Shown here: piece by piece, positions 2,076 through 31,697 of the stretch | Layout of the letters: each line of letters opens with the position of its first letter | Numbering within the stretch: the stretch's first letter is position 1 | DNA from: Aeropyrum pernix K1 | Lineage (GTDB): Archaea; Thermoproteota; Thermoprotei_A; Sulfolobales; Acidilobaceae | Assembly (NCBI RefSeq): GCF_000011125.1 | Contig: NC_000854.2 | Span: 1,500,001-1,532,000 of the forward strand | Length of the DNA: 32,000 nt | Direction: 5' to 3' | The notes under the pieces: model-generated | Databases searched by the model: none | What the model was told of the DNA's origin: nothing | The model's input: the letters and a program-made list of their open reading frames with translations, nothing else | Made by a program: the position numbers and the translations under genes

Positions 2076-3293
2076 GTGGACTTCTCTCTGGGGCCGGATC
2101 TAGAGCTGTTTAGGGAGAGCCTCCGGAGGGGGCTGGAGAAGCTGCTGGGCGGGGGTAGGTGGGCCGAGATAGATGAGGCCGGCGTCCTCCCCGCAGAGAC
2201 GATTAGGGGGCTAGGAGCCCTCGGCGTCCTTGCTCTCGTCTGCCCGGAGGAGCTTGGGGGTCAGGGTGGAGGCTGGCTCGAGGCGGCTATCGCCGCTGAG
2301 GAGATAGGCTACCACGACCCCAGCATGTCGACAGCCGTGTACACCCTGCTAAACAACGCCTGGCCGTTCATTCTATCCCGCCATGGGAGCCCTGAGGTGG
2401 CGGGGGGTATAGTTGAGAAGGTTGCTAAGGGTGAAATGTTCTTCGGGATAGCCTCGACCGAGCCAGGCGGCGGGAGCGATGTGGCGGGTATCAAGACCCG
2501 CGCCGAGAGGAGCGGGGACTACTACAGAGTGTACGGCGAGAAGATACTGATAAGCGGTGTAAGGGAGGCTCTGGAGACCCTCGACTACGGGGGCTGGCTG
2601 CTGCTAGCGAGAACCGGGGGTGAGGGCCACAGGGGCCTTTCCGCCTTCGCCTTCACAGGCAAATGGGATGGCAGCCTGGCCAGCGGCCTGGAGTACAGCA
2701 TACTCGACACAATAGGGAGGCACGGGATATCCACGGGGATACTCAGGCTCGACGGGGCGGAGGTGCACGCCTCCAGGATCGTCGGAGGCGAGGGCCGGGG
2801 CTTCTACGTGGCAATGGAGGGCTTCCCCCTGGCAAGGATACTGGTGGCGGCGGCGAACGTTGGCGCCGCGAGGTGGGCGCTGGAGAGGGCCGTGGAGTGG
2901 TCCAGGGAGAGGAGGCTCTTCGGAGGGAGGCCCATAGCCTCTTTCCAGGGTGTGAGCTTCTCGATAGCGGAGGCTTTCGCAGGGCTGGAGGCGGCGAGGC
3001 TCCTAGTCTACAGGGCGGCCTGGACTGCCGACAGGTACGTTCGAGGCGAGGCTGCAAGGGAGGAGCTTAACCTGTACAGCGCTTCAGCGAAGCTGAAGGC
3101 GGTGGACACCGCCTTCTCCATATTCCAGGAGACGATGAAGATAGTCGGGGGCATAAGCTTCACGAAGGAGGTCGACGTCCACAGGGGCCTGCTCGGGACC
3201 CTATCCTACCTCGTGGGGGCTGAGGGGGCGCAGAACATAATGAAGTACATCATAGCCAGGGACCTGATAGGAAGAGAGTATGTGAAGCTCTAG
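2076..3293 (+). CDS. Acyl-CoA dehydrogenase
   Basis: 405 aa. FGIASTEPGGGSDVAGIKTRAE is the ACAD signature region. The C-terminal helical domain has GGxGFTKE-like ...GGISFTKEVDVHRGL. Length is typical. Confidence 0.9.
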   Translation: MDFSLGPDLELFRESLRRGLEKLLGGGRWAEIDEAGVLPAETIRGLGALGVLALVCPEELGGQGGGWLEAAIAAEEIGYHDPSMSTAVYTLLNNAWPFILSRHGSPEVAGGIVEKVAKGEMFFGIASTEPGGGSDVAGIKTRAERSGDYYRVYGEKILISGVREALETLDYGGWLLLARTGGEGHRGLSAFAFTGKWDGSLASGLEYSILDTIGRHGISTGILRLDGAEVHASRIVGGEGRGFYVAMEGFPLARILVAAANVGAARWALERAVEWSRERRLFGGRPIASFQGVSFSIAEAFAGLEAARLLVYRAAWTADRYVRGEAAREELNLYSASAKLKAVDTAFSIFQETMKIVGGISFTKEVDVHRGLLGTLSYLVGAEGAQNIMKYIIARDLIGREYVKL

Positions 3294-7986: not shown

Positions 7987-8475
7987 TTACAGGTCGTCCC
8001 ACCAGTCGGCCTCCAGCCTGGCCTCTGAGGACCTGTAGTAGATTGTAGGCACCCCTCTGCGGCGGAGCCTCCTCCTCAGGCTCCTGTCGCTGGTTGCCAC
8101 GTATACTTTAGCCCCCTCTACTTTGAGCTTTTCGGCAGCTTCCTCGAGGCTGTCGTCGGCGTCTCGGCTCTCAGTTTCTATGACCTCAACTCCCATCTGC
8201 TGGAGGAGCCTGAGGGCGGTCTGGGCCCTCCTGCCGAGGAGCCTTGTCCTATGTATCTCAGCGAGCCCCCGCAGCTCGGCTACTACTGTAGACGTGGTGG
8301 CGGGTTTGAAGCTGGAGTTTATCGCCTCTAAGATCATGCTTGGGGCTATTCGGCCGGAGGCCATCAGGATAAGGGTGTTGGAGTCCAGGAGAACTACTAC
8401 TTTATGAGCCCCCAGCCTATGAGCCTCCACCTCCCCATTATCCTCCTGCTCAGGGCCACCCTCGCCTTGGGCCAT
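7987..8475 (-). CDS. PIN-domain protein (Fcf1/COG1412-type, conserved neighbour of aIF2-gamma)
   Basis: VVLLDSNTL (first PIN Asp), ...ADDSLEEAA... and ...[13 protein letters not shown]. About 150 aa. The start is ATG 8475 or GTG 8430. Both overlap the 3' end of the aIF2-gamma gene. Confidence 0.7.
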
Positions 8476-9659
8476 GTTACCACAGGCCTCCTAAGCTGCA
8501 CCTCAATCTCGTCCTTCCCCGCCCTGGTTACGACGCCGAGGGTTATCGCCGTCCCCACAGAGAGCATCAGCATCTCCCCCCTCCTTATAGGCTCCACCCT
8601 AGCCTCCTCCTTCATACCCACAACCTTCTCAAGCAGGTGGTGCTCTATCCTCAGCGTGGTCAGGGGCTCCGGCAGCTCTCCCGGCTTGCCCACGACGTTG
8701 CCGACCAGGTTGTCGGCCTTTGTCACGCTGGGGTCGAGCTGAGTGCCTATAGCCACGAGGCCCCCCGGCCTCGCCTCCTCCACCTCTATACTCCCGAACC
8801 TTAGGCTAGTGATTGTGGTGTGGAGCCTGACGTACTCCACCCTGCCCCCCGGCTTCCGCACGGCCACACCCGGGCTTATCTCTATCTCGTCCCCAACCCT
8901 GAAGACACCCTGGATTATGCTCCCCCCGACAACCCCGCCGACAAGCCTCTCAGGCGGCGTGCCAGGTCTGTTGACGTCGAAGCTCCTGCTGATGTACATC
9001 ACCGGCGGCTTATCCAGGTCTCTCGGCGGCGTGGGTATGAACTTCTCTATCGCTGCCAGCACGGCGTCGATGTTAGCCCTCTTGAGCGCGCTGACAGGGA
9101 TGATCGGGCTCCCCTCGGCTATCGTCCCCTTGATGAAGTTCAGGATCTCCTGGTAGCTCTCCTTGGCCCTCTCCCTAGAGACGACGTCCACCTTGTTCTG
9201 GACTATTACTATGTTCTTGATACCTATGATCTCGAGCGCCACGAGATGCTCCTTGGTCTGGGGCTGTGGGCAGGGCTCGTTGGCAGCCACAACCAGGAGG
9301 GCGCCGTCCATAAGGGCTGCCCCGCTTAGCATGGTGGCCATCAGTATCTCGTGTCCAGGCGCGTCCACATAGCTGACCCTCCTCCTGAGGGAGGCGCTAG
9401 CCTGGGGGTCACACTCGCACACAGGCTCTGGGCTGAACCTCTCCGGGAACCCGCAGCCCTCGCACTCCCACACCTCGCCGTCGGCGTACCCCAGCTTAAT
9501 GGTCATGCCCCGCCTAATCTCCTCGCTGTGCCTCATAGTCCAGACTCCCGTGAGCGCCTGTACGAGCGTGGTCTTGCCGTGGTCGACGTGGCCTACTACT
9601 CCAATGTTGACCTCAGGCTGACGCTTGTCTCCACCGCTCAAGGCGCTAAACCCGGGCAT
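8397..9659 (-). CDS. eif2g: Translation initiation factor aIF2 gamma subunit
   Basis: 420 aa. [11 protein letters not shown]1 motif, the zinc-knuckle region [11 protein letters not shown]...CEC, DAPGHE and NKVD. Length and domain order are typical. Confidence 0.95.
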
Positions 9660-9716: not shown

Positions 9717-10424
9717 TTACTCCTCCTTGTCGCCGTAGTGGATGACAATGTTTAGCTGGGCTAGGGCGGTCTTCCTCCTCTCACCCCTAGGATCGGGTAT
9801 CATCCTCCCCCTGACGCTCTTCCTCCTCCTCTCACCCCTCTCCCTGGGGTGGAAGCCCGGCGGGCCTGCTAGGAGAACCTTATACCTCCCCGACCCCGGC
9901 ACTCCAGGGTGCATTGGTATCCCTGTAGCGTCCGTGCCCCCTCTTATCTTGAACTTGAGCCCTGGCATGCCGATGAGCCCTCCGTCGAAGACGTCTCCTA
10001 TCTCAAGGCCGGCCAGCTTAACGTGGACATCATCGGGAACCGCTATCTGCCAGGATTTGGCTCTGAACGCGTCAGCCTCCGTCTCCAGCTCGCCCGCAGC
10101 CTCGCCGAGGAGCTCCATGTTGACCTCGACCACATTATCCTCAAGACCCTCCTTGACCTCGGCCTTAAAGGGGACCTTAACCTTCTTGCCGTCGGGGGTC
10201 GTGAATCTCAGGGTGAGAACCCCCACCTCGCCGAGGTTCAGCTCCTCGTAGAGCTTCCTGCTGACCCTGGCGATGGGGAGCCTCCTCCTGTCAGACTCCT
10301 TAGTCTTCCTCATGTCGTCAGTATACTCAATATCTTCTACTCCCTTCACCTTAACCCTGACAACCCTATCCCCAGCGCGGGGGTCAGATATCACTATCCT
10401 GAGTGGTGGCCTCTCCTCCGACAC
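9717..10424 (-). CDS. rps6e: 30S ribosomal protein S6e
   Basis: LRIVISDP N-terminus, then KFKIRGGTDATGIPMHPGV...LLAGPPGFHPRERGERRRKSVRG, diagnostic of S6e. GTG 10424 is preferred because GGAGGTGA lies 6-7 nt upstream. The ORF track extends to 10472. Confidence 0.9.
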   Translation of the reverse strand: MSEERPPLRIVISDPRAGDRVVRVKVKGVEDIEYTDDMRKTKESDRRRLPIARVSRKLYEELNLGEVGVLTLRFTTPDGKKVKVPFKAEVKEGLEDNVVEVNMELLGEAAGELETEADAFRAKSWQIAVPDDVHVKLAGLEIGDVFDGGLIGMPGLKFKIRGGTDATGIPMHPGVPGSGRYKVLLAGPPGFHPRERGERRRKSVRGRMIPDPRGERRKTALAQLNIVIHYGDKEE

Positions 10425-10539
10425 TCTAGACTCACCTCCACAGCCGGACCCCACCCGGGGGGTCCAGCCCAAACCTTGGGTGAGGATTCCACGGCCTAAT
10501 TAGCTTTACAATACACTCTATGTCAACGGGGTGTAGCGT

Positions 10540-12393
10540 ATGGCTGGAGATAAGGGTGGTGGCGACGGGGAGAGGAGGCTTAGGCAGCCTATAGTGGTGG
10601 TGCTGGGCCACGTCGACCACGGCAAGACCACGCTGCTGGATAAGATTAGGAGGACTGCAGTGGCCGCGAAGGAGGCCGGGGGTATTACACAGCATATTGG
10701 GGCTAGCATAGTTCCGGCTGACGTCATCGAGAAGATTGCTGAGCCCCTTAAGAAGGTTATACCGGTCAAGCTGGTTATACCCGGCCTTTTATTCATAGAC
10801 ACCCCGGGCCACGAGCTGTTCTCGAACCTACGCCGCAGGGGGGGCAGCGTCGCCGACTTCGCAATACTAGTCGTGGATATAATGGAGGGGTTCAAACCCC
10901 AGACCTACGAGGCTCTGGAGCTCCTGAAGGAGAGGAGGGTTCCCTTCCTCATAGCGGCGAACAAGATAGACCGCATACCGGGGTGGAAGCCCAACCCGGA
11001 CGCCCCCTTCATAGAAACCATACGAAGACAGGACCCGAAGGTTAGGGAGATACTTGAACAGAGGGTGTACGAGATCGTTGGTAAGATGTATGAGGCGGGG
11101 CTGCCGGCCGAGCTTTTCACGAGGATCAAGGACTTTAGGAGGAAGATAGCCATAGTGCCCGTCTCAGCGAGGACTGGGGAGGGCATACCGGAGCTGCTGG
11201 CGGTGCTCGCCGGCCTGACCCAGACCTACCTGAAGGAGAGGCTGAGGTACGCTGAGGGCCCTGCAAAGGGTGTGGTGCTAGAGGTTAAGGAGATGCAAGG
11301 CTTCGGCACGGTCGTTGACGCGGTGATATACGACGGCGTCCTGAAGAAGGAGGACATAATAGTAGTCGGCGGGAGGGAGGGCCCCATAGTGACTAGGGTG
11401 AGGGCGCTCCTCATGCCAGCCCCACTCCAGGACATCAGGAGCAGGGAAGCCAGGTTCGTCCAGGTTGACCGCGTCTACGCCGCGGCTGGTGTTAGGATAG
11501 CCGCTCCCGGCCTGGACGACGTGATCGCCGGGAGCCCGATCTACGCTGCGGAGAGCGAGGAGGAGGCTAGGAAGCTGATGGAGGCGGTGCAGAGGGAGAT
11601 AGAGGAGCTCAGGTTCAGGACGGAGAATATAGGTGTGGTTGTCAAGGCCGACACCCTGGGGACTCTCGAAGCCCTTGTTGAGGCCCTCAGGAGGAGGGGA
11701 GTCCCTGTCAGGCTGGCCGACATAGGCCCCGTGTCAAGGTCTGACGTGCTCGACGCTGCCGTAACCAGGAAGATAGACCCGTACCTGGGGGTCGTGCTCG
11801 CCTTCAACGTGAAGGTCCTCCCTGAGGCGGAGGAGGAGGCCTCGAGGGCTGGGGTCAAGATCTTTAGGGAGAGCATGATATACAAGCTGATAGAAGACTA
11901 TGAGGAGTGGGTTAAGAAGGAGAAGGAGGCCGAGAGGCTGAAGGCCCTCAACAGCCTGATAAGGCCGGGCAAGTTCAGGATACTCCCAGGCTACGTCTTC
12001 AGGAGGAGCGACCCCGCGATAGTGGGTGTCGAGGTCCTCGGCGGAGTGATCAGGCCTGGCTACCCGGTCATGGATAGCCAGGGGAGGGAGCTCGGGAGGA
12101 TAATGGCTATTAAGGATAGGGATAGAAGCCTCGAGGAGGCCAGGCTGGGGGCTGCCGTGGCGGTCTCGATACAGGGTAGGATCCTTATAGGTAGGCACGC
12201 AAACGAGGGCGATATACTCTACACTAACGTGCCCGCACAGCACGCCTATAAGATCCTCACCGAGTTCAAGGACCTCGTGTCGAAGGACGAGCTGGACGTG
12301 CTCAGGGAGATCGCCGAGATTAAGAGGAGGGCTGCCGACCACGAGTACAACAAGGTGCTTCTAAGGCTCAAAATAAAGCGTGTTAGCCAGTAG
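10540..12393 (+). CDS. infB: Translation initiation factor aIF5B (IF-2 homolog)
   Basis: 617 aa. [21 protein letters not shown] and NKID GTPase motifs, followed by the aIF5B domains. Confidence 0.95.
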   Translation: MAGDKGGGDGERRLRQPIVVVLGHVDHGKTTLLDKIRRTAVAAKEAGGITQHIGASIVPADVIEKIAEPLKKVIPVKLVIPGLLFIDTPGHELFSNLRRRGGSVADFAILVVDIMEGFKPQTYEALELLKERRVPFLIAANKIDRIPGWKPNPDAPFIETIRRQDPKVREILEQRVYEIVGKMYEAGLPAELFTRIKDFRRKIAIVPVSARTGEGIPELLAVLAGLTQTYLKERLRYAEGPAKGVVLEVKEMQGFGTVVDAVIYDGVLKKEDIIVVGGREGPIVTRVRALLMPAPLQDIRSREARFVQVDRVYAAAGVRIAAPGLDDVIAGSPIYAAESEEEARKLMEAVQREIEELRFRTENIGVVVKADTLGTLEALVEALRRRGVPVRLADIGPVSRSDVLDAAVTRKIDPYLGVVLAFNVKVLPEAEEEASRAGVKIFRESMIYKLIEDYEEWVKKEKEAERLKALNSLIRPGKFRILPGYVFRRSDPAIVGVEVLGGVIRPGYPVMDSQGRELGRIMAIKDRDRSLEEARLGAAVAVSIQGRILIGRHANEGDILYTNVPAQHAYKILTEFKDLVSKDELDVLREIAEIKRRAADHEYNKVLLRLKIKRVSQ

Positions 12394-13891: not shown

Positions 13892-14167
13892 ATGAGATCC
13901 CCCGGGGTGTACAGGGGGTTGTCTGCTAGGGAGGGAGAGAAGAGGAGCGGAGTTATCGAGGAGTTTGGCTTCCCCGCGGAGGTCATACAGATAATAGGCC
14001 GTACAGGCGTGACGGGCGAGGTAACACAGGTTAGGGTTAGGATCCTGGAGGGTAGGGACAAGGGGAGGATTCTGACTAGGAACGTGATAGGCCCGGTTAG
14101 GATAGGTGACATACTGATACTTCGGGAGACGGAGAGGGAGGCTAGGAAGCTGAGCGGCAGGCGCTAG
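13892..14167 (+). CDS. rps28e: 30S ribosomal protein S28e
   Basis: [62 protein letters not shown] is near-consensus S28e. The N-terminal ~20 aa are longer than in most S28e proteins. Confidence 0.9.
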
Positions 14168-14214: not shown

Positions 14215-15668
14215 TCAGTACGGTATCAGGGTCAGGGTTACCGCAGCCACTGGAGCTATGAGTATCATGAGTGCTATGGTGTAGCCGAATACATCCCTAG
14301 CCCTCGTCCTAGTTATGTCTAGGAGGGGTATTGCCCAGAAGGGCTGGAGTAAGTTTGTCCACGAGTCGCCGAAGCCGTAGGCTATTATGGTTTTACCTAT
14401 CGGCACTCCCAGCTCGTGGCCGGCCCTGACTAGTATTCTCCTATCGCAGCCCACTCGCCGCCCCCGCTTGGTATGAAGAGGTTCACTATGCCCGCGGTTA
14501 GGAAGGCCACTACCGGCCATATGAAGGGTGTTGAAACGTCGGCCAGGCCTTCTGCGATGATCTGGGCCGAGCTCTTGCCGAGAGGCTCGAAGGGCGTGTT
14601 TAGGAGGCCGAAGATGCCGGCGTAGAAGTGGAACTGTAGTATGACGCCCGCGGCCGATGAGACGCTCCTGTAGAAGGCCCTTGCGTAGCTCATGGGGTTG
14701 GCGTAGAGCAGGAGTCCTGTCATTAGGAAGATGAAGTTCATGGTGTTGAGGTTGAGCGCCCTGCTTATGCCCCGTGTATACAGCTCTATTGCAACCGCCG
14801 TGAAACCCAGTATGACGGTGAGTATGGCCAGTGTCCTGGAGTTCTCAAGCCTGTCCGCCAGGGTCTCGATCCTGGGCTTCTCACCAGCGGGCGCAGCCTC
14901 TTCCTTGAGGGCGTCGGGGTCGAACTCCTCTATCCCCCTGACGGGCCCTCGGGAGGGGCTTATGAGCCAGTATATCGCCAGTGCTGCCAGGGTTATCAGC
15001 AGGAAGTTTATGATAGTGTAGGGGTGGAAAATCGTCTGTGAGAGCGGTATTGTCTCGACGCCGTAGAGCTCCTTCACAACGTTGGCCAGGAAGTGGCCGG
15101 GAGTGTTCATGAGCAGCGGGGCGCTTGCCGTGAGACCCCAGTGCCATGTTAGCCCTAGGCCGCTGTATGCAGCGACGACCACTACTGGATAGTGGATCTT
15201 CCTTCCGCGGAAGGCGGCCTGCCTCCCTATCTCCCTGGCCAGTATGGCCCCGCCTATCAGGCTCAGGCCCCAGCTGAGGTATGAGAGTGCTATGGCGACG
15301 GCTGCGGCGAGGACGGCTGCCTGCTTCGTGTCCCTAGGTAGGCCGGCTATCCTGGAGAGAACCCTGTATACGAGTGGGTGGTAGGCTATAACGTAGCCCG
15401 TCACCAGTATAAGGGTCATCTGCATGCTGAAGGTCAGGAGCTTCCAGAAGCCGCCGTACCATGCACTGTAGACTAGAAACTTGACAGTACCCCCCAGCCC
15501 CACATGCTGTATGGGCCTCAGGAGGATGAGGTCGAGCACTATTGCTATGAATGTAAGGAGTATGGCGAAGATGAAGGGGTCTGGCATGACGCCCCTGACC
15601 CTTCGCTCCAGCGCCTCGCCGAAAGCCTCTAGGAAGGGACGCCTAGACTCGTCCCCCAATGAGCCCAC
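14215..15668 (-). pseudogene. atoE: AtoE-type short-chain fatty acid transporter, interrupted by a frameshift near 14437-14439
   Basis: ORF 14430..15668 ends ...IPSGGGEWAAIGEY*. ORF 14215..14520 carries the continuation in another frame: ILVRAGHELGVPIGKTIIAYGFGDSWTNLLQPFWAIPLL.... Together they reproduce the AtoE C-terminal pattern PSGGGxW..QGP....A..LG....AYG..W.N..QPFWA.P. Confidence 0.7.
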
Positions 15669-15861: not shown

Positions 15862-17019
15862 TTGCCCAGGGCTGCTATAGTCTCGGCGGGCTGGTACGGG
15901 TTCAAACCCGAGGTTGGCGAGCTCAGCTTCAGGGAGATGATGTTCGAGGCCGCCCTACGCGCCTATAGTGCGGCGGGTGTAGACCCTAGGAGGGATGTGG
16001 ACGCCTTCTTCTCCTGCCAGGAGGACTATTGGGAGGGAATAGCTATTACAGACGAGTTCGCCCCCGAGCCCATCGGAGGCGTTCTCAGGCCCACCTCAAC
16101 GGTTGCTGGAGACTTCATCCAGTGCCTCGGCCAGGCTGTGATGCTAGTGAGGACAGGCTACTTCGACCTGGTCGCCGTAGAGTCCCATGCAAAGCCGAGC
16201 GACATAGCGACCATAAAGGGGGTTATGGATATGGCGCTAGACCCTCTCTACCTCAGGCCCCTCGACCCGCCGAACCCCCACTTCATCGGGGGGCTTATGG
16301 CGAACGCCTTCCTGGCCAGGACCGGCCTAGGGAGGGAGGCGCTAGCCATGGTGGCGGCTAAGAACAAGAACGCGGGGCTCTCCAACCCCCGGGCGAGCCA
16401 CGCAGCCCCGGTGACGCTGGGCGACGTTCTCTCAGCAAAGCCTGTAGTAGACCCTCTGACGGGGTATGATATCGCGCCTTTCAGCGACGCGGCAATCGTC
16501 ATGCTGGTTGCTAGCGAGGAGGCTGCTAGGAGGCTCACGGACACTCCCGTGTGGATAGAGGGTGTAGGCTGGTCTACAGAGTCTGGCACCGGCTCGCTGG
16601 CCTGGCACCAGTGGGATTCTATGCCGAGCATACGCATGGCGGTCGACATGGCCAAGTCTATGGCTGGGCTGAGCGGAAGGCCCCAGACCTTCACGAGCTT
16701 CGCGGAGCTGGAGGACAGGTACTCTTTCATGGAGATACTCTCCATGGAGGAGGCCGGTATAGCCGGTCCTGAGGAGGCCTACAGTATGCTGGAGGCTGGT
16801 GATACAGAGCCTAGCGGCAACTACCCCGTCAACCCAAGCGGGGGCAGCCTGGCCGCGGGGGTGGCCCTCGAGGCGACAGGGGGCTTCAGGGTTCTAGAGG
16901 CTTATGAGAGGCTCATGGCTATGGGTGAGGAGCTTGAGCCTGGGGCGGAGAGGGCCCTGGTGGTCTCCTGGAGGGGGCCACCCACTAGGACTGCTATGGC
17001 TGTTATACTCGGTGTTTAG
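15862..17019 (+). CDS. Thiolase-fold (SCP-x/lipid-transfer-protein type) protein, apparently lacking the catalytic Cys and His
   Basis: 385 aa. The overall pattern is that of an archaeal-type thiolase. However, the nucleophile segment reads PTSTVAGDFIQCLGQAVMLVRTG (no C-A-S-G). The C-terminal NPSGGSLAAGVALEATG replaces GG..GHP.GATG. TTG start. Confidence 0.7.
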   Translation: MPRAAIVSAGWYGFKPEVGELSFREMMFEAALRAYSAAGVDPRRDVDAFFSCQEDYWEGIAITDEFAPEPIGGVLRPTSTVAGDFIQCLGQAVMLVRTGYFDLVAVESHAKPSDIATIKGVMDMALDPLYLRPLDPPNPHFIGGLMANAFLARTGLGREALAMVAAKNKNAGLSNPRASHAAPVTLGDVLSAKPVVDPLTGYDIAPFSDAAIVMLVASEEAARRLTDTPVWIEGVGWSTESGTGSLAWHQWDSMPSIRMAVDMAKSMAGLSGRPQTFTSFAELEDRYSFMEILSMEEAGIAGPEEAYSMLEAGDTEPSGNYPVNPSGGSLAAGVALEATGGFRVLEAYERLMAMGEELEPGAERALVVSWRGPPTRTAMAVILGV

Positions 17020-17045
17020 GATGGTCTTGTGGGGGTGGATGTGCG

Positions 17046-18230
17046 GTGGTTTCCAGGCCTAATATACATGTTAAGAGTAAGGTAGCCGTCGTGGGGGCGG
17101 GGATCACGCTTTTCAGGAGGAGGATGTTGGAGACGCCCCGCGAGCTGGCGTGGGAGGCTGCCAGGCAGGCTCTAGACTCTGCAGGGCTGACCCTCAGGGA
17201 TATAGACTGTGTTGTCATAGGCAGCGCGCCCGACGCTTTCGACGGGGTGCACATGAAGGGGGAGTACCTGGCCGACGGCAGCGGGGGTCTCTTCAAGCCC
17301 ACTGTGAGGGTTTACGTGGGCGGAGGCACTGGTGTCTTCGTCCCCATAGCCGCCTGGTGGCACGTGGCCAGCGGCCTCTGCAGGACGGTGCTTGCTGTGG
17401 CTGAGGAGAAGATGAGCCACGCCAGGCCACACCCGCAGGGCGTGTTCGCCTACATCTGGGACCCTGTTCTCGAGAGGCCCCTAGGGCCGAACCTGCTCTG
17501 GATATTCGCCCTGGAGATGAGGCGGTACATGCACAAGTGTAACGTTTCAAAGGAGACTATAGCCCTGGTTAGCGTTAAGAACAAGAGGAACGCCCTAGAC
17601 CACCCCGCGGCGCAGGCAGCGGCGAACATAACCGTGGAGGACGTGTTGAACAGCGAGGTCCTCGTATGGCCTGTTAACAGACTTGACGTGAGCCCCGTTA
17701 GCGACGGTGCCGCGGCTCTGGTGCTGGCCAGCGAGAACGAGGCGAGGAGGGTGACCGACAGCCCCGTCTGGATAGAGGGTGTGGGTTGGACCCTCGACAA
17801 CACCCACTGGTACAACAGGGAGCTCGGCTACCCGAGGTACGTCCAGTACGCGGCCAGGATGGCTTACAAGATGGCCGGGATCGAGAGGCCGTGGAGGGAC
17901 ATAGACTTCGCGGAGCCCTACGACCCCTTCGACTACAAGGAGCTGCACCACATAGAAGGGCTAATGCTGGCCAGGCCGTGCGAGGCTCCGAAGCTGCTCG
18001 AGGAGGGCTGGTTCGACAGGAGCGGCGAGCTGCCTACAAGCCCAAGCGGCGGACTCCTGGGCGTGGGCAACCCAATAGCAGCTGCGGGCCTGATGAAGGC
18101 GGCAGAGCTGTTCTGGCAGCTCAGATACGAGGCGGGGGCTAGGCAGGTGAAGAAGCCCGTCCACAGGGGGGTCGCCCAGGCCTGGGGCGACCTCATGCAG
18201 GCCGGGACGGTCGTCGTCATGGGTAACTGA
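17046..18230 (+). CDS. Thiolase-fold protein paralog, apparently lacking the catalytic Cys and His
   Basis: 394 aa. VAVVGAGITLF N-terminus. The nucleophile segment is VRVYVGGGTGVFVPIAAWWHVASG. The C-terminal SPSGGLLGVGNPIAAAG has Asn in place of His. GGGGGTGG lies 7 nt before GTG 17046. Confidence 0.7.
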   Translation: MVSRPNIHVKSKVAVVGAGITLFRRRMLETPRELAWEAARQALDSAGLTLRDIDCVVIGSAPDAFDGVHMKGEYLADGSGGLFKPTVRVYVGGGTGVFVPIAAWWHVASGLCRTVLAVAEEKMSHARPHPQGVFAYIWDPVLERPLGPNLLWIFALEMRRYMHKCNVSKETIALVSVKNKRNALDHPAAQAAANITVEDVLNSEVLVWPVNRLDVSPVSDGAAALVLASENEARRVTDSPVWIEGVGWTLDNTHWYNRELGYPRYVQYAARMAYKMAGIERPWRDIDFAEPYDPFDYKELHHIEGLMLARPCEAPKLLEEGWFDRSGELPTSPSGGLLGVGNPIAAAGLMKAAELFWQLRYEAGARQVKKPVHRGVAQAWGDLMQAGTVVVMGN

Positions 18231-18244
18231 GGGGGTGGTGCGCC

Positions 18245-18790
18245 GTGCCTGATGGCGGGAAGAAGCTCCCTGGTACATACCTGAGCGAGAAGGATCTCAG
18301 GGCCCTCCCGGGCCTGGTGGAGCATACTCCCGACGCCAAGTACATGTTCTCCGCTGGCCAGGCTCAGAGCAGGTTCCTGCAGGGCCTCAGGGAGGGGAAG
18401 ATACTTGGCGTCAAGTGCCCGCGCTGCGGAAGAGTCTACGTGCCACCAAGGAGCTACTGCGAGTACTGCTTCGCCCCTACTGGAGAGTGGGTTGAGGTGA
18501 GCGGTGAGGGGGAGGTCCACACGGCTGTGGTGAGCTATATATCGACTTTTAGGGAGAGGATGGAGAAGCCCGAGATAATAGCTGTGGTGAGGCTCTACGC
18601 TCCAGGCTACACTGGGAAGAGAGATGAGTACGAGTTCCCCGGTATGTTCCACAAGCTCTGCGGCGTGAGCGAGGAAGACGTCAAGACTGGAAGGGTGATA
18701 GGGATGAGGGTTAAGCCTAAGTGGAGGCCCCCTGAGGAGAGGATAGGCAGCGTCACCGATATAGAGTGTTTCGAGCCCGTGAAGAGCTAG
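18245..18790 (+). CDS. DUF35 OB-fold / Zn-ribbon protein (thiolase-associated)
   Basis: 181 aa. FLQGLREGKILGVKCPRCGRVYVPPRSYCEYC (four-Cys rubredoxin-like ribbon) followed by an OB-fold region (GEVHTAVV...). GGGGGTGG lies 6 nt before GTG 18245. Confidence 0.8.
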   Translation: MPDGGKKLPGTYLSEKDLRALPGLVEHTPDAKYMFSAGQAQSRFLQGLREGKILGVKCPRCGRVYVPPRSYCEYCFAPTGEWVEVSGEGEVHTAVVSYISTFRERMEKPEIIAVVRLYAPGYTGKRDEYEFPGMFHKLCGVSEEDVKTGRVIGMRVKPKWRPPEERIGSVTDIECFEPVKS

Positions 18791-18794
18791 GGGG

Positions 18795-19268
18795 GTGGTC
18801 GTGGTGAACGCCCAGTGGAGTAAGAACCCGTGGAACGTGTACAAGTTCCCGGGAAGGATGGAGGTTGAGAAGTACGTATACACCCCGGGGCTGCACGGGC
18901 TAGAGTTCGCCAAGGCGTTGAAGGAGGGCAGGATAGTTGGGACGAAGTGTGGGGACACGGTGTATGTGCCCCCGACAACCTTCTGCCCCGACATGAGCAG
19001 GGGTGAGGTGGCCGAGGTCCTGGGGCCCTGGTATATCGAGTCTTATACTATAGTGTACGAGAGCCTGGACGGCAAGCCTCTGGAGAAGCCGGTCGTCATC
19101 GCGGTTATCGCTCCGGAGGATGCGGAGGGCGCTCTAGTCCACTACGTAGACGCCGACCCCGACGAGGTTTACATAGGCATGCCTGTGGAGCCCGTGTTCA
19201 AGCCTCCAGAGGAGAGGAGCGGAAACATACTGGACATACTACACTTCAAACCCACAGCCCAGTCATAA
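18795..19268 (+). CDS. DUF35 OB-fold protein paralog with a degenerate Zn-ribbon
   Basis: FAKALKEGRIVGTKCGDTVYVPPTTFCPDM keeps only 2 of the 4 ribbon cysteines. An OB-fold-like C-terminal half follows. The start is probably GTG 18801 or 18804, downstream of GGGGGTGG (18791-18798). Confidence 0.7.
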   Translation: MVVVNAQWSKNPWNVYKFPGRMEVEKYVYTPGLHGLEFAKALKEGRIVGTKCGDTVYVPPTTFCPDMSRGEVAEVLGPWYIESYTIVYESLDGKPLEKPVVIAVIAPEDAEGALVHYVDADPDEVYIGMPVEPVFKPPEERSGNILDILHFKPTAQS

Positions 19269-19403: not shown

Positions 19404-21938
19404 TTGAAGAGCAGGGTGGAGATAGAGCGAGAGGCTATCGAGGTGCTGAAGGATCTCAACAAGGCCGCCGGACCAGGGTTTACAAGGCTGGTGAGGCTTG
19501 TAGGCGCCGCCCTGAGGGCGGCGATACCTAAGAGGCATAGGGTGATGGTAGTCATCAGCGGCTCCGACCCTGTAAGGGTGGGCGCTGGCACCGCCAGGCT
19601 CCTCCTCTACTTTGAGAGGGTTTACCGCAGGACCGTTGAGAGGAGGCCCCTCAAGGTGCTCTACATGTTCCACGACGAGTTCGACGACGCCAGGCTCAGG
19701 AAGGAGATTGTGAAGAGGGCTGTCAAGGAGAAGGGGAGCATGCTAGAGCAGGTTACCGCTAGGTACGAGGAGAGCGACAGGTACTTGGGGACAACGTTCC
19801 AGGCGCTCGTCCTGGACCTGACCAACGATCTAAAGCCTAACGACGTGGGGAGGCTGGTGGAGGTTGTCGAGGGAGGCGGCCTCATAATACTGCAGGCGCC
19901 CTCCTGGGAGAGGTGGGACACGGCTCTCACGCTCTTCAAGAAGAACCTCCTGGTCCCGGGGCATGAGGAGCCCAGGCACATATTCATTTCCTGGTTTAAG
20001 AGGAAGCTCCTCGAGCATAACAGGGGTATCATAGTCTACGACGCCGACTCCAGGAAGATACTGAGCGGGGAGCCCGAGGATCCGGGAGAATACAGGAGGC
20101 GGGAGCCCAAGCCTCCCAAGAAGAGCCTCTTCCCGCCGGAGGTCTACAGGCTGGCGCTCACGCAGGACCAGCTTGAGGCGGTCAGGCTGATGGAGTGGCT
20201 CTACGACAAGCCGCCTCGTGGTAGGAAGAAGATGATTGTGATAACGGCCGATAGGGGGCGGGGGAAGAGCAGTGCACTCGGCATCGGCCTGGTTGCCCTG
20301 GCCCACGAGCTTGGCAAGGTTAAGCATAGGGTGAGGATCATAGTGACCGCCCCTAGCCCGAGCAACGTCCAGAGCCTCATGGAGCTGGCTATAAAGACCG
20401 CCGAGACTCTGGGCTTGGAGCCGAAGCCCGTCAGGAGGGGGGGCCGGATAATAGAGGTTCAGGGGAGGAAGTTCAGCCTCGAGTACTGGGAGCCGGCCAC
20501 CGTTGTGAGGCTCCAGGGGGACATAGTGGCGGTTGACGAGGCAAGCGGCATACACGTACCCCTCCTCCACAAGATATGGAGGGCGCATAGGAGGCTCGTG
20601 TTCTCGGCCACGATACACGGCTACGAGGGCGCGGGCAGGGGCTTCAACGTAAGATTCCTCTCCGCCGTGAAGAAGAGCGGCGACACCATCATAAGGGAGT
20701 TCAAGATGGAGGAGCCCATTAGGTATGCCCCCGGCGACCCGATAGAGAGATGGCTCTACAACACCCTACTCCTAAACGCAGAGCCGGCGGAGCTCGACGA
20801 GGACGACCTGAGGGATATAAGGGAGGGGAGGCTCGAGTACCTCAGGCTCGACCCCCAGTGGCTGTTCAGCCCCGAGGGCGAGGAGACGCTGAGGCAGCTT
20901 TTCGGCATCTACGTGCTCGCCCACTACAGGAACGAGCCCGACGACCTGGGGATGCTGGCGGACGCCCCTCACCATAGCATAAGGGCTGTGAGGACCGCGG
21001 GTAAGGGCAAGATAGTTAGCGCAGCCCAGGTTGCGGAGGAAGGCGGCCTGGGGGAGGAGCTCATAGACAGGCTGCTTAGGGGGGAGAAGATAGCGGGCAA
21101 CATCATACCCGACAGGATGCTCAAGCACGCCAGGATAAGGGAGTTCGGCAGGATGGTGGGATGGAGGATAGTTAGGATAGCCACCCACCCGGAGGTCCAG
21201 GGCCGGGGTATTGGTAGCTGGCTCCTGGAAAGGCTCTACGAGGAGAGCGTCGAGAGGGGCTACGACTGGCTGGGCAGCGGCTTCGGCATAAACGAGCAGC
21301 TCCTAAGGTTCTGGCTCAGGAACGGCTTCCTAGTGCTCCACCTCAGCCCTGATAGGAACCCGGTGAGCGGAGAGTATACGAGCCTGGTCATGAAGCCCAT
21401 AACCGGCAGGGCCAGGGCGGCGATAATGATAGCGGCTAGGGAGTTCAAGCTGAAGCTCCTCAACAGCCTCCACGACACCTACAGGGATATGGAGCTTGAG
21501 GACGCTATGCTCCTCCTCGAGATGGAGCCGAGGGCTCTGGAGCCGGGTTACAGGCCCAGGCTCACCAGGATACAGCTTGACAGGCTGTGGATATACAACT
21601 ACGGGCCCATGACCTACGAAGCCGCGACAGACGTTATACACGAGCTGGCTATGGCGTATTGGAAGATGGAGCCAGAGGCCAGGCCGAGGCTAGGCGATCT
21701 GGAGAGGAGGGTTCTCGTCGCCAAGGTACTGCAGGCTAAGAGCTGGGGCGAGGTGGCCCAGGAGCTGGGGGTCAGGGAGCACAAGGTCATGACAACGCTT
21801 AAAGAAGCGGTCAGGAGAATGTCCCGGGAGCTCTTCGGCCTCGCCGAAGACTCTAGAGTCGGGGTGGAGCTGCATGAGCTTGGCCAGCATGGGGAAGGGG
21901 AGCTGCGAGATATACAGGCTGGACCCAGAGAGGCCTGA
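19404..21938 (+). CDS. tmcA: tRNA(Met) cytidine acetyltransferase TmcA (Kre33/NAT10 homolog)
   Basis: 844 aa. The N-terminal HRVMVVISGSD is DUF1726-like. The helicase P-loop is ITADRGRGKSSALG. The GNAT region is RIVRIATHPEVQGRGIGSWLL. A C-terminal tail domain follows. TTG start. Confidence 0.9.
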   Translation: MKSRVEIEREAIEVLKDLNKAAGPGFTRLVRLVGAALRAAIPKRHRVMVVISGSDPVRVGAGTARLLLYFERVYRRTVERRPLKVLYMFHDEFDDARLRKEIVKRAVKEKGSMLEQVTARYEESDRYLGTTFQALVLDLTNDLKPNDVGRLVEVVEGGGLIILQAPSWERWDTALTLFKKNLLVPGHEEPRHIFISWFKRKLLEHNRGIIVYDADSRKILSGEPEDPGEYRRREPKPPKKSLFPPEVYRLALTQDQLEAVRLMEWLYDKPPRGRKKMIVITADRGRGKSSALGIGLVALAHELGKVKHRVRIIVTAPSPSNVQSLMELAIKTAETLGLEPKPVRRGGRIIEVQGRKFSLEYWEPATVVRLQGDIVAVDEASGIHVPLLHKIWRAHRRLVFSATIHGYEGAGRGFNVRFLSAVKKSGDTIIREFKMEEPIRYAPGDPIERWLYNTLLLNAEPAELDEDDLRDIREGRLEYLRLDPQWLFSPEGEETLRQLFGIYVLAHYRNEPDDLGMLADAPHHSIRAVRTAGKGKIVSAAQVAEEGGLGEELIDRLLRGEKIAGNIIPDRMLKHARIREFGRMVGWRIVRIATHPEVQGRGIGSWLLERLYEESVERGYDWLGSGFGINEQLLRFWLRNGFLVLHLSPDRNPVSGEYTSLVMKPITGRARAAIMIAAREFKLKLLNSLHDTYRDMELEDAMLLLEMEPRALEPGYRPRLTRIQLDRLWIYNYGPMTYEAATDVIHELAMAYWKMEPEARPRLGDLERRVLVAKVLQAKSWGEVAQELGVREHKVMTTLKEAVRRMSRELFGLAEDSRVGVELHELGQHGEGELRDIQAGPREA

Positions 21939-22977
21939 CAGGAGGGCTATAGAGAGGGCGGCCGAGGTCCTGAGGCGAGGGGGGCTGGTGGCGTTCCCGA
22001 CGGAGACTGTCTACGGCCTGGGGGCTGACGCCCTGAACCCGAGGGCCGCCGCAAGGATATTTGAGGTGAAGGGGAGGCCCCCCGACAACCCCCTGATAGT
22101 ACACGTGTCCAGCCTGGAGATGGCCAGGACTGTGGCCGAGATCCCTGGTAAGGCTCTTAGACTTGTAGAGAAGCTCTGGCCAGGACCCCTGACGCTCGTG
22201 CTGCCGAGGAAGCCTGTAGTGCCGGATATAGTCACAGCTGGCCTAGAAACCGTGGCCGTGAGAATGCCCGCCCACAAGGTTGCCCTAGAGCTGGTGAAGG
22301 CTGCTGGCAGGCCTGTTGCGGCGCCGAGCGCTAACCCCAGCGGGAGGCCCAGCCCAACAAGTGGAGAGCATGTAATAAGGGATCTTGACTGCATGGTCGA
22401 CGTCATACTGGACGCGGGGGAAACCTACTTCGGCGTCGAGTCCACAATAATAGATCTAACGCGGACGCCCCCAGTGCTCCTAAGGCCCGGCCCAATACCC
22501 GTCGAGGTCCTTGAACGGCTGTTGGAGGAGAAGATACTCGTGCCCCCCGAGGCGCGAGGCCTGAGGGCCGCGGACAGGCCTCTGGCGCCGGGCATGAAGT
22601 ACAGGCACTACGCCCCCGACACTCCACTCATACTGGTGGACACGAGCCCTGGAGCTGTCGAGAGGATTGTTGAGGCTGCTGTTAGGGAGGTGGCGAGGGC
22701 CCGGGGGCTCCGGGTTGCCCTGGTCGGCCCCGACGAGCTTGTCGACGTTGTAGCCCTTCTTCTAAGGCTCCGTGGCGTGGAACCGGCGGCGATCTTCAGG
22801 CTGGGTCCTCTCGCCGATACTACTGTCGCCGCCAGGAGGCTGTTCAAAACCCTGCGCCGCATAGACGAGCTCGGCAACATCGATGTCGCCATAGTACTGC
22901 CGTTCCCGGAAAGGGGGATAGGCCTAGCTGTCATGAACAGGCTTAGAAAAGCAGCGTCTAGAAGGGTTGGAGCCTAG
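21889..22977 (+). CDS. sua5: L-threonylcarbamoyladenylate synthase Sua5 (YrdC domain + Sua5 C-terminal domain)
   Basis: AAEVLRRGGLVAFPTETVYGLGADA, FEVKGRPPDNPLIVHV and APSANPSGRPSPT. The long form is about 360 aa. ATG 21889 or ATG 21874. Both overlap the tmcA 3' end. Confidence 0.9.
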   Translation: MGKGSCEIYRLDPERPDRRAIERAAEVLRRGGLVAFPTETVYGLGADALNPRAAARIFEVKGRPPDNPLIVHVSSLEMARTVAEIPGKALRLVEKLWPGPLTLVLPRKPVVPDIVTAGLETVAVRMPAHKVALELVKAAGRPVAAPSANPSGRPSPTSGEHVIRDLDCMVDVILDAGETYFGVESTIIDLTRTPPVLLRPGPIPVEVLERLLEEKILVPPEARGLRAADRPLAPGMKYRHYAPDTPLILVDTSPGAVERIVEAAVREVARARGLRVALVGPDELVDVVALLLRLRGVEPAAIFRLGPLADTTVAARRLFKTLRRIDELGNIDVAIVLPFPERGIGLAVMNRLRKAASRRVGA

Positions 22978-30851: not shown

Positions 30852-31697
30852 GTGATGGGGCTGCGAATAGTTGTGGGTTTCAAATGGGTGCCTAACACAC
30901 AGGCTGTGAGGATCGATCCTAAAACTGGAACTCTCATTAGGCAGGGCGTCCCGAGCATAATCAACCCTCCAGACCTTGCTGCCGTGGAGCTCGCTCTACG
31001 GCTTAGGGATGAGTACGGCGGCGAGGTTATCGCAGTTACTATGGGCCCGCCCCCCGCCCTAAAGGGGCTGGAGCATCTGATAGGCATGGGGGTCGACTAT
31101 GGCTACATGTTCAGCGATAGGGCTTTCGCAGGCGCCGATACACTGGCCACTAGCTACGTCTTGTCGGAGGGCATAAAGTACATTGAGAGGGAGAGGGGGA
31201 GGGTCGATCTAGCCCTCTTCGGTCAGGAGACTATCGACTCGAGCACCGCCCACATCGGAGCACAGGTCGCTAGCTGGCTTCAGTGGCCCTATATATACTA
31301 TGTGAGGAAGGCCGCCGTGGACGGCGGGAAGCTGGTGGCTGAGAGGATCGTGGAGAACTATGTCGAAACCTATGAGCTACCCCTCCCGGCGGTCGCTTCG
31401 GTGGCGATCAGAGCCTTCAAACCCCGGGAGGTCACTCTATCCGGGAAGCTCAGGTTCAAGAAGGAGAAGCCCTACAAGATAGTGTCCAACAAGGAGCTCG
31501 GGCTCGACCCCAGGTGCGTCGGCCTCAAGGGAAGCCCCACCATCGTCGCCAAGGTAACCTACCTACCGGAGATCCCGAGAAGGGCTGAGGTGTATAAGCC
31601 GAGGGATCCGAGGGACGGTGCCAGGTGGCTTCTGAGGAAGCTTTTGACGGATAGCGAGACACGGGACCTCATACTCAAGGCTCTATGGGGAGGTTGA
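30852..31697 (+). CDS. etfB: Electron transfer flavoprotein beta subunit (EtfB/FixA)
   Basis: 281 aa. VGFKWVPN...INPPDLAAVELALRL...VTMGPP...GADTLATSY, typical of EtfB. Start is GTG 30852 or ATG 30855. Confidence 0.9.
   Translation: MMGLRIVVGFKWVPNTQAVRIDPKTGTLIRQGVPSIINPPDLAAVELALRLRDEYGGEVIAVTMGPPPALKGLEHLIGMGVDYGYMFSDRAFAGADTLATSYVLSEGIKYIERERGRVDLALFGQETIDSSTAHIGAQVASWLQWPYIYYVRKAAVDGGKLVAERIVENYVETYELPLPAVASVAIRAFKPREVTLSGKLRFKKEKPYKIVSNKELGLDPRCVGLKGSPTIVAKVTYLPEIPRRAEVYKPRDPRDGARWLLRKLLTDSETRDLILKALWGG

Follow-up and report, generated by a model that had tools for sequence, protein, structure and literature searches.

A conserved module of two cysteine-less thiolase-fold proteins and two DUF35 proteins in Aeropyrum pernix, tentatively read as a heteromeric retro-aldol lyase

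The stretch of Aeropyrum pernix K1 DNA analyzed here (NCBI RefSeq assembly GCF_000011125.1, contig NC_000854.2, positions 1,500,001 to 1,532,000 of the forward strand; 32,000 nt, hereafter the window, with position 1 as its first letter) carries at 15862-19268 on the + strand an operon of four genes, which we call P1 to P4. P1 (15862..17019; 385 aa, TTG start) and P2 (17046..18230; 394 aa, GTG start; the presumed catalytic subunit) encode thiolase-fold proteins, while P3 (18245..18790; 181 aa, GTG start) and P4 (18795..19268; 157 aa or fewer) encode the first and the second of two DUF35 proteins. The gaps between successive genes are 26, 14 and 4 nt, and the operon lies 193 nt from a divergent gene upstream and 135 nt from the next gene downstream. 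An earlier note, made from the sequence alone, had described four tightly spaced same-strand genes for two thiolase-fold and two DUF35 proteins, and the open reading frames, Pfam and NCBIfam all agree with that description. In Pfam, P1 matched Thiolase_C_1 and P2 matched Thiolase_N plus Thiolase_C_1; in NCBIfam, both scored above the curated cutoffs of families that carry only the name "thiolase domain-containing protein," i.e., PRK06066 for P1 (583 bits; cutoff 516) and PRK06065 for P2 (786 bits; cutoff 455). P1 is 93% identical to a protein of Aeropyrum camini.

AlphaFold2 (AF2) monomer models had a predicted local distance difference test score (pLDDT) of 80.5 and a predicted template modeling score (pTM) of 0.86 for P2, and 87.2 and 0.90, respectively, for P1. 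When these models were compared with known structures using Foldseek, P2 reached a template modeling (TM) score of 0.89 to 6et9_C, the archaeal thiolase of the thiolase/HMG-CoA (3-hydroxy-3-methylglutaryl-CoA) synthase complex, and the best matches of P1 were archaeal and SCP2 thiolases, with TM up to 0.86. With scores of 0.86-0.89 to 6esq/6et9, both modeled proteins have the thiolase fold. Further matches were the P. furiosus thiolase, ST0096, SCP2 thiolases, PhlC, BbsB, Ltp2, TbSLP, Sal and MucC. Judged from the models, P1 and P2 fall within the DUF35-partnered SCP2/archaeal-thiolase clade (TM 0.79-0.89).

The catalytic columns were read from a MAFFT alignment of 164 sequences (71 P1-family, 80 P2-family and 13 canonical thiolases), together with pairwise and profile alignments made with HMMER and hhalign. 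The pairwise HMMER alignments to thiolases of known structure gave the same columns. The 13 canonical thiolases, which are encoded as neighbors of the module in Bathyarchaeia, all kept the nucleophilic Cys, the HDCF motif and the GHP motif (13/13). At the nucleophile column, the P2 family has Gly in 80/80 sequences, within the segment V-G-G-[GA]-T-G-V; in the window protein this segment reads G92-G93-G94-T95-G96-V97 (17319..17336, + strand), with Gly93 at the position of the Cys. The HDCF motif of SCP2 thiolases is represented by Y292-D-P294-F-D-Y297-K298 (17919..17939, + strand), whose YDPF aligns directly onto the HDCF of the SCP2 thiolase 6hsj, and across the family the leading residue is Tyr in 79/80 sequences and His in 1/80, followed by D-P-F-D-Y-K. 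The His of GHP is replaced by Asn in G341-N342-P343 (18066..18074, + strand), G-N-P being found in 80/80 sequences, and W380-G381-D382 (18183..18191, + strand) forms an invariant C-terminal loop.

Across 79 archaeal and 119 bacterial P2 sequences, 118 of the 394 positions are at least 97% identical, a set that includes G92-G93-x-T95-G96, E290, Y292-D-P-F, Y297-K298, H301-H302, N342-P343 and W380-G381-D382. Within it, G92, G93, T95 and G96 are invariant in all of these sequences and Tyr292 is present in 78/79 archaeal and 119/119 bacterial members; among the archaea alone, 143/394 positions are invariant. With about 30% of its residues fixed across both domains, P2 has a function under strong selection. 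Column 332, the Asn of the thiolase NPSGG loop, is Ser in the window (S332; nt 18039-18041), N, S or C in archaea (N29/S27/C23) and Cys in 118/119 bacterial fusion proteins; the equivalent Asn is kept invariantly in P1 (N324).

In the P1 family (n = 71), the nucleophile column holds S, A, T or P beside a 3-residue deletion, the HDCF column holds D, E or H for the His and R, T or L for the Cys (EDRY in window P1), and the GHP His column holds V, Y, N or H (GVA in window P1). The earlier note had aligned Ala in P1 and Gly in P2 with the catalytic Cys and had reported the GHP His to be missing from both. Gly in P2 and the absence of the His (GNP in P2, GVA in P1) are borne out, but the residue of P1 depends on the aligner: it is A82 with MAFFT, T80 with phmmer against 6esq and a gap with hhalign, and in no alignment does a Cys occupy this column. 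The former nucleophile elbow of P1, T80-V-A-G-D84 (16099..16113, + strand), carries the 3-residue deletion relative to P2 and thiolases in both MAFFT and hhalign alignments, and archaeal as well as bacterial members conserve its T80 and D84. P1 also has an acidic loop of its own, SCQEDYWEGIAITDEFAPEP (residues 51-70; 16012..16071, + strand), in which E54, D55, G59, I62 and E65 are invariant in archaea and bacteria. Residues 56-74 had a pLDDT below 50 in the AF2 monomer and are the only low-confidence part of the model, which suggests that the loop becomes ordered only in a complex. In total, archaea and bacteria share 28 conserved P1 positions, and the conserved polar set comprises E54-D55...E65, T80, D84, E107, K111, S113, D127, N324 and E337. 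P1 is thus more than a decayed copy, and the two paralogs are not equivalent, with P2 being the strongly constrained one.

No cysteine column is conserved in the P1 or the P2 family when archaeal and bacterial members are taken together, and no profile, pairwise or fold-based alignment yields a Cys-His(-Cys) set in either protein. Since the catalytic Cys and His are replaced in both proteins and no Cys column is conserved, P1 and P2 are predicted to be unable to run the covalent Cys-based Claisen mechanism and, as far as sequence can tell, are not Claisen thiolases. This upholds the view of the earlier note that a Claisen thiolase is unlikely, and the literature searched contained no report of close orthologs being ordinary thiolases or HMG-CoA synthase.

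The two small proteins, for which the earlier note had proposed profile searches against PF12172 (zf-ChsH2) and PF01796 (OB_ChsH2_C), both matched these Pfam families above the gathering thresholds, and neither contains a MaoC domain (Pfam). In P3, an N-terminal helical extension precedes a CxxC...CxxC zinc ribbon and an oligonucleotide/oligosaccharide-binding (OB) fold, and its matches in the PDB include 3irb, 6esq_E, 9myr_B and 6ok1_B. The ribbon, C58-P-R-C61 ... C72-E-Y-C75 (18416..18469, + strand), has all four Cys in 74/74 family members. In P4 only Cys1 and Cys3 of the ribbon are left, so that the contrast drawn previously between a first DUF35 protein with four cysteines and a second with two is correct for the window; across the P4 family, Cys2 is present in 49/72 and Cys4 in 46/72 sequences, and the loss is thus specific to some lineages. 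The first DUF35 crystal structure, that of SSO2064 (PDB 3IRB), can be placed relative to these proteins: the SSO2064 fragment is 82% identical to the gene in the P4 position of the Saccharolobus module and 53-63% identical to other Sulfolobaceae P4 proteins, compared to 37-42% for P3. On these identities, SSO2064 is the Sulfolobus ortholog of P4. Its authors proposed a generic acyl-CoA-binding role only.

A genome scan with P2 gave at least 588 confirmed relatives, and the locus counts reported here (n/80) are drawn from the best 80, in which P2 identity was 68-91%. Their hosts comprise Acidilobales, Desulfurococcales, Pyrodictiaceae, Thermoproteales and Sulfolobales; Geoarchaeota, Geothermarchaeota, Marsarchaeota, thermophilic Nitrososphaeria and many Bathyarchaeia; and Asgard metagenome-assembled genomes (Hodarchaeota, Promethearchaeota). 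An intact, same-strand P1-P2-P3-P4 order was found in about 70/80 loci spanning the TACK superphylum (Thaumarchaeota, Aigarchaeota, Crenarchaeota and Korarchaeota) and Asgard archaea, the exceptions lying mostly at contig ends. The mean pairwise identity over the 80 loci was 73% for P2, 49% for P1, 49% for P3 and 40% for P4. When 1.84 billion cluster representatives were searched exhaustively with HMMER, P2 fell into a tight clade, with a single full-length 50%-identity cluster and a gap in identity from at least 59% to at most 44% before the next full-length relatives. The earlier note had suggested surveying the two-plus-two arrangement in Crenarchaeota, where it is indeed conserved; it is, however, not confined to them, since it extends through TACK and Asgard archaea and occurs in fused form in Bacteria.

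The fused form is typified by P0242 (731 aa), a natural P2-DUF35-DUF35 fusion whose second DUF35 has only two Cys, as in window P4. It is recurrent: the P0242 cluster has 27 members, and at least 628 proteins matched at E<=1e-50. All named sources are bacterial, i.e., Pseudomonadota, Planctomycetes, Bradymonadales, Actinobacteria and Desulfobacterota (Desulfopila, Desulfocapsaceae). In three annotated bacterial genomes and in 16/17 metagenome loci (the remaining one, L090, starts at the fusion gene), a P1 gene stands directly 5' of the fusion gene. Because P2, P3 and P4 are joined into one polypeptide of about 730 aa in Bacteria, this Rosetta-stone evidence indicates that they probably form one physical unit, to which P1 would be a separate partner.

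Beyond the tight P2 clade, metagenomic sister families at 35-44% identity (P0250, P0257 and P0261-P0284, one member being from Lokiarchaeia) split into a P2-like type with GGxTG / Y-x-[PA]-F / x-N-P-I-G and a P1-like type with ED-x-x-EG-x-AI-x-DEF. Paired Cys-less thiolase-fold proteins may therefore be much more widespread than the clade itself. Several Bathyarchaeia (loci L053, L054, L058-L064, L066-L068, L076 and L077) also encode a canonical thiolase with its own DUF35 gene on the opposite strand, about 1.3-3 kb upstream of P1; since the two stand as divergent neighbors at these loci, the canonical and Cys-less systems coexist.

All flanking open reading frames of the 80 archaeal loci were clustered. 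An acyl-CoA dehydrogenase (ACAD) lies near the module in 20/80 loci, across many phyla, and an orthologous ACAS_N-type AMP-forming acyl-CoA synthetase (ACS) in 12/80. Genes for a methylmalonyl-CoA-mutase-like protein and MeaB are recurrent neighbors in Bathyarchaeia, as are those for the E1-beta, E2 and E3 components of a 2-oxoacid dehydrogenase in Desulfurococcales. In P. aerophilum, the ACAD gene overlaps the P4 stop codon and is translationally coupled to the module, with synthetase, enoyl-CoA hydratase (ECH) and aldehyde dehydrogenase genes just upstream. In Stygiolobus, a synthetase and a major facilitator superfamily (MFS) transporter follow P4, and the order in Saccharolobus is ACS, then ACAD-P1-P2-P3-P4, then a 2-oxoacid:ferredoxin oxidoreductase and a second ACS. 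Two bacterial genomes have the module flanked by an ACAD, an ACS-type ligase and an XRE-cupin regulator, and in one of them a branched-chain aminotransferase and a 2-oxoacid oxidoreductase are also nearby. The nearest matches of the co-operonic ACAD are butyryl-/short-chain ACADs and those of the ligase are acetate-CoA ligases; NCBIfam typing of the neighbors gave generic matches only, below the cutoffs. No HMG-CoA synthase gene was present among the window genes or the recurrent neighbor clusters. Together, the recurrence of these neighbors in archaea and their repetition in bacterial genomes suggest that the ligase, the short-chain ACAD and the P1/P2/two-DUF35 module form a conserved functional unit. 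The bacterial loci L102 (GCA_054928395.1), L103 and L104 carry one or two small HTH_3 / Cupin_2 (XRE-cupin) regulators beside the module, the ACAD and the ligase. These regulators are candidate ligand-sensing repressors whose effector could reveal the substrate of the pathway.

To our knowledge, the sole characterized Cys-less enzymes of the clade to which P1 and P2 are assigned are steroid side-chain retro-aldolases. P2 superposes on these with TM 0.79 (6ok1, Ltp2) and 0.81 (9myr, Sal), at 22-25% identity. In this class, HDCF has become YDHF in TcLtp2 and YDCY in CtSal, with the Tyr of the motif acting as the catalytic base; the backbone NH of a Gly binds the beta-hydroxyl; and the general acid is Tyr344 in Ltp2 and Cys304 in Sal, where Gln352 takes the position of Tyr344 (PMC12329534). 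By sequence alignment, P2 Tyr292 corresponds to CtSal Tyr302 and TcLtp2 Tyr294, P2 Gly93 to the hydroxyl-binding Gly (Sal Gly89) and P2 Asn342 to Sal Gln352, and the spacing of 50 residues from Tyr292 to Asn342 equals that of Tyr294-Tyr344 in Ltp2 and Tyr302-Gln352 in Sal. A chain of alignments connects the same motifs, CtSal YDCY with P1 EDRY and, by hhalign, P1 EDRY with P2 YDPF, although P1 itself, with E, D or H at this column, lacks the catalytic-base Tyr. P2 Gly381 is probably the counterpart of the Sal oxyanion-hole Gly391, a match that is based on residue offset only and assumes a 26-residue tag in 9myr. P2 thus appears to possess the base of these aldolases and their elements for binding the hydroxyl and the oxyanion, but neither of the known proton donors.

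Since YDPF of P2 aligns with the catalytic YDCY/YDHF of Sal and Ltp2, we favor a Tyr-based aldolase, in line with the suggestion of the earlier note that the enzyme might be of an aldolase or lyase type, with which the positions of Gly93 and Asn342 opposite Sal Gly89 and Gln352 are also consistent. In this reading, to which we give somewhat less than an even chance, the four genes would encode a heteromeric, non-covalent retro-aldol C-C lyase acting after the ligase and the ACAD. P2 would be the catalytic subunit, with Tyr292 as base, and P1 its diverged pseudo-dimer partner, while P3 and P4 would clamp the thiolase-fold pair and shape the substrate cleft, as DUF35 does in Ltp2, Sal, BbsAB, PhlABC and the archaeal thiolase/HMG-CoA synthase complex. 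The ACS-type ligase would convert an acid to its acyl-CoA, the short-chain ACAD would oxidize this to a 2-enoyl-CoA and, after hydration, P2 would cleave the 3-hydroxyacyl-CoA by a non-covalent retro-aldol reaction or form the same compound in reverse. Tyr292 of YDPF would take the proton from the beta-hydroxyl, which the backbone NH of Gly93 would hold, Asn342 and the Gly381 loop would stabilize the thioester enolate, and cleavage would release a small aldehyde or ketone together with acetyl- or propionyl-CoA. As substrate, we consider a C4-C5 acyl-CoA probable, which may be branched and of amino-acid origin. The small organic-acid substrate proposed in the earlier note remains credible, but on other grounds: the AtoE-type transporter on which it was based is a poor guide, being frameshifted and a neighbor of the module in only one other locus, and the ACS-type ligase and short-chain ACAD argue for such a substrate better. 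The stoichiometry, the identity of the catalytic subunit, the retro-aldol chemistry and the substrate are all what we infer.

Several observations weigh against this proposal. The general acid of the class is absent from P2, which has Pro294 at the position of Sal Cys304 and Asn342 at that of Ltp2 Tyr344. P2 resembles Ltp2 and Sal less than it does true archaeal thiolases (28-32% identity, TM 0.89), and because of this an aldolase mechanism shared with them would be convergent, i.e., independently acquired. The subunit composition also departs from that of Ltp2 and Sal, where a homodimeric aldolase has on its flanks two identical DUF35 domains, themselves fused to a MaoC hydratase, whereas the module has two distinct thiolase-fold subunits, two distinct free-standing DUF35 proteins and no MaoC. 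A hydratase is not a conserved neighbor (ECH in 1/80 loci, plus P. aerophilum), and an aldehyde dehydrogenase adjoins the module only in Pyrobaculum; the adjacency of these two genes was accordingly rejected as a general feature and is specific to Pyrobaculum. The conservation of P2 is unusually high for a peripheral catabolic enzyme. Finally, the literature searched contained no biochemical characterization of the P1 or P2 families or of the four-gene unit.

A catalytic complex with other acid-base chemistry is an alternative that we consider unlikely. Such a complex could have two centers, the polar set of P1 forming a second site, e.g., an enoyl-CoA hydratase that would make the whole a hydratase-lyase. 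The 28 P1 positions conserved in both domains cluster at former active-site elements, the ACAD is a conserved neighbor while a separate hydratase is not, and P1 but not P2 has kept the Asn of the NPSGG loop, all of which speak for a second center. Yet we know of no thiolase-fold hydratase; the canonical catalytic columns of P1 vary by lineage and, at 49% mean identity, P1 as a whole shows no more than ordinary conservation; and its conserved residues could equally be interface contacts, given an acidic loop that is disordered in the monomer model. A variant of this explanation assigns the complex another enolate reaction, i.e., decarboxylation, isomerization or a Michael-type addition, and here TbSLP, with its YDCF motif, offers a parallel in its weak malonyl-CoA decarboxylase activity (PMC12329534). 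Combining the two-center arrangement with the Tyr-based lyase, one arrives at a more doubtful but farther-reaching proposal, in which the module, ligase and ACAD would be an unrecognized thiolase-free, NAD-free route, present in archaea and bacteria, for shortening short or branched acyl-CoAs, with P1 as a thiolase-fold hydratase and P2 as a Tyr retro-aldolase relying on a new proton donor. A single complex would then take the 2-enoyl-CoA from the ACAD and turn it into an aldehyde or ketone and acetyl- or propionyl-CoA; 3-methylcrotonyl-CoA, for example, could yield acetone and acetyl-CoA, bypassing biotin-dependent carboxylation.

The module could also be a non-catalytic pseudoenzyme scaffold that binds acyl-CoA or organizes the ACAD, the ligase or a true thiolase for channeling or regulation, an explanation we judge to be on the unlikely side as well. 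Every canonical catalytic residue has been lost, DUF35 proteins serve as scaffolds in the archaeal thiolase/HMG-CoA synthase and fatty-acid-synthase complexes, a purely acyl-CoA-binding role was what the SSO2064 authors proposed, and Bathyarchaeia keep a canonical thiolase and DUF35 pair directly beside the module. However, it is rare for a pseudoenzyme to have 30% of its positions invariant across two domains; moreover, the invariance of P2 sits on former catalytic loops (GGGTG, YDPFDYK, GNP, WGD), and the Tyr substituted here has a known role as catalytic base in homologous aldolases. Less probable again is an acyl-transferring thiolase or acyltransferase with an unconventional nucleophile. 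Thr95 of GGGTG would be suited by its invariance and its position two residues past the former Cys column, Cys332 by the Cys found at this column in 118/119 bacterial and 23/79 archaeal P2 sequences, and in the paralog ST0096 (4YZO) both His are present and Ser stands in the Cys column. In P2, though, both His and the acid/base Cys that would activate the nucleophile and the incoming CoA are absent, and a column that is N, S or C in archaea (Ser in the window) provides no family-wide nucleophile. A role unrelated to acyl-CoA, e.g., one linked to RNA or translation like that of the DUF35 protein Trf (Sso2509), is barely credible. Trf has a reported role in aIF2 release, and the window encodes aIF2-gamma, aIF5B, S6e, TmcA and Sua5; but these translation genes are not conserved neighbors in the 80 related loci, where the conserved neighbors are acyl-CoA enzymes, and Trf is not among the PDB matches of P3 and P4 even at E<=1. 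On both synteny and sequence, we rejected a Trf-like translation role.

Returning to the retro-aldol lyase, TcLtp2-ChsH2 (6OK1) and CtSal-Shy (9MYR) share with the module the SCP2-thiolase fold, Gly at the Cys column and, at the head of the former HDCF motif, a Tyr (YDHF and YDCY, compared to YDPF in P2). Sal further resembles P2 in having an amide residue in place of the GHP His (Gln352 and Asn342, respectively). Ltp2 and Sal have an obligate DUF35 partner, which the gene order and the bacterial fusion predict for P2 as well, and act after an ACAD, as proposed here. The module differs in that the general acid, Cys304 or Tyr344, is missing from it and that its neighbors indicate short acids rather than steroids. 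The best-supported reading is that the module shares its enzyme class and partner logic with Ltp2 and Sal, and that its heteromeric composition, two DUF35 proteins, different catalytic set and spread from Aeropyrum to Desulfobacterota are new.

Other characterized systems resemble the module in part. The archaeal thiolase/HMG-CoA synthase/DUF35 complex is the best structural match (TM 0.89 for P2) and likewise an archaeal, DUF35-scaffolded assembly of thiolase-fold proteins, but its thiolase keeps Cys, HDCF and GHP and is partnered by HMG-CoA synthase, for which the module has no adjacent gene. PhlABC/MucABC (5M3K, 9VBO) and BbsAB (7PXP) are thiolase-fold heteromers with a DUF35 subunit, and PhlC has Tyr-Asp at the HDCF column as P2 does; in contrast to P2, the nucleophilic Cys is retained in PhlC and BbsB, PhlA is of the KAS-III/HMG-CoA synthase-like type rather than an SCP2-type paralog, and each of these complexes holds only one kind of DUF35. 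The ketothiolase (KT)/DUF35 pair of S. acidocaldarius (Saci_1121/Saci_1120) is a crenarchaeal thiolase and DUF35 heteromer working on short acyl-CoAs. An active Claisen ketothiolase that forms a 1:1 (alpha2-beta2) complex with one DUF35, it recruits a reductase and a dehydratase and has no Cys-less paralog pair; because of its activity and its pairing with only one DUF35, identity of the module with this fatty-acid-synthase component was rejected. TbSLP (YDCF, 5AB4), ST0096 (4YZO) and the sister families described above are thiolase-like proteins with altered catalytic motifs; TbSLP, unlike P2, keeps the motif Cys, and ST0096 has Ser / HDMA / GHP and is 29.5% identical to Stygiolobus P2 (BLASTP) and 32% to the window P2 model (Foldseek). 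With about 30% identity and this motif set, ST0096 was rejected as an ortholog. SSO2064 (3IRB) has the same N-terminal helical extension, zinc ribbon and OB fold as P4 but all four zinc ligands, compared to two in window P4, and was crystallized alone. Two further possible parallels are SSO2061, which may be the P1 ortholog and appears in a virus-infection proteome as a regulated "acetyl-CoA acetyltransferase," and Rv3521-ltp4-ltp3 of M. tuberculosis, which are adjacent genes annotated as probable thiolases.

Annotation pipelines label the genes of the module "acetyl-CoA acetyltransferase" or "thiolase domain-containing protein." As a consequence of this automated labeling, P1 and P2 are miscounted as thiolases of beta-oxidation or the mevalonate pathway when the metabolism of Thermoproteota, Bathyarchaeia, Asgard archaea and many uncultured bacteria is reconstructed. 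If the aldolase reading is true, DUF35-dependent retro-aldolases would reach beyond specialized steroid catabolism into the general metabolism of short-chain acyl-CoAs, and a heteromeric architecture and a catalytic variant, in which a Tyr base operates without either known acid, would be added to the class. The system is experimentally approachable, with cultured hosts (Aeropyrum, Pyrobaculum, Saccharolobus/Sulfolobus), thermostable proteins, the 3IRB structure and a natural fusion that simplifies expression.

With regard to translation signals, the earlier note had each internal gene preceded by GGGGGTGG, and we found this Shine-Dalgarno-like box on the + strand at 17031..17038 (7 nt 5' of the P2 GTG), at 18231..18238 (6 nt 5' of the P3 GTG) and at 18791..18798 before P4. 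Because the last of these overlaps the listed P4 GTG at 18795, the in-frame GTG at 18801 or 18804 is the more plausible start of P4. The octamer occurs 11 times in the window, compared to 4.3 expected, a count reached in 1/100 shuffles; given this window-wide enrichment, it looks like a genome-wide signal of the Shine-Dalgarno type and not one peculiar to this operon.

Elsewhere in the window, an ACAD gene (2076-3293, + strand) and a gene for an electron-transfer-flavoprotein subunit (30852-31697, + strand) lie 12-13 kb to either side of the operon, and the ACAD partner of the Aeropyrum module may be encoded at a distance from it. The AtoE-like gene at 14215-15668 (- strand) is split in two: one open reading frame (14430-15668) covers positions 3-382 of the 453 of the SCFA_trans profile, and a second in another frame (14215-14520) covers 382-453 (E 2.7e-25), the two overlapping by about 90 nt. 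It carries a single frameshift and is therefore a pseudogene or the product of a sequencing error. Its only counterpart beside the module in the other 80 loci, at L013 (Thermodiscus), looks intact. The operon sits amid genes of translation and RNA modification, namely aIF2-gamma (8397-9659, - strand), S6e (9717-10472, - strand), aIF5B (10540-12393, + strand), TmcA (19404-21938, + strand) and Sua5 (21874-22977, + strand), the last two overlapping by 65 nt. A small open reading frame at 13892-14167 (+ strand) presumably encodes ribosomal protein S28e, which it resembles.

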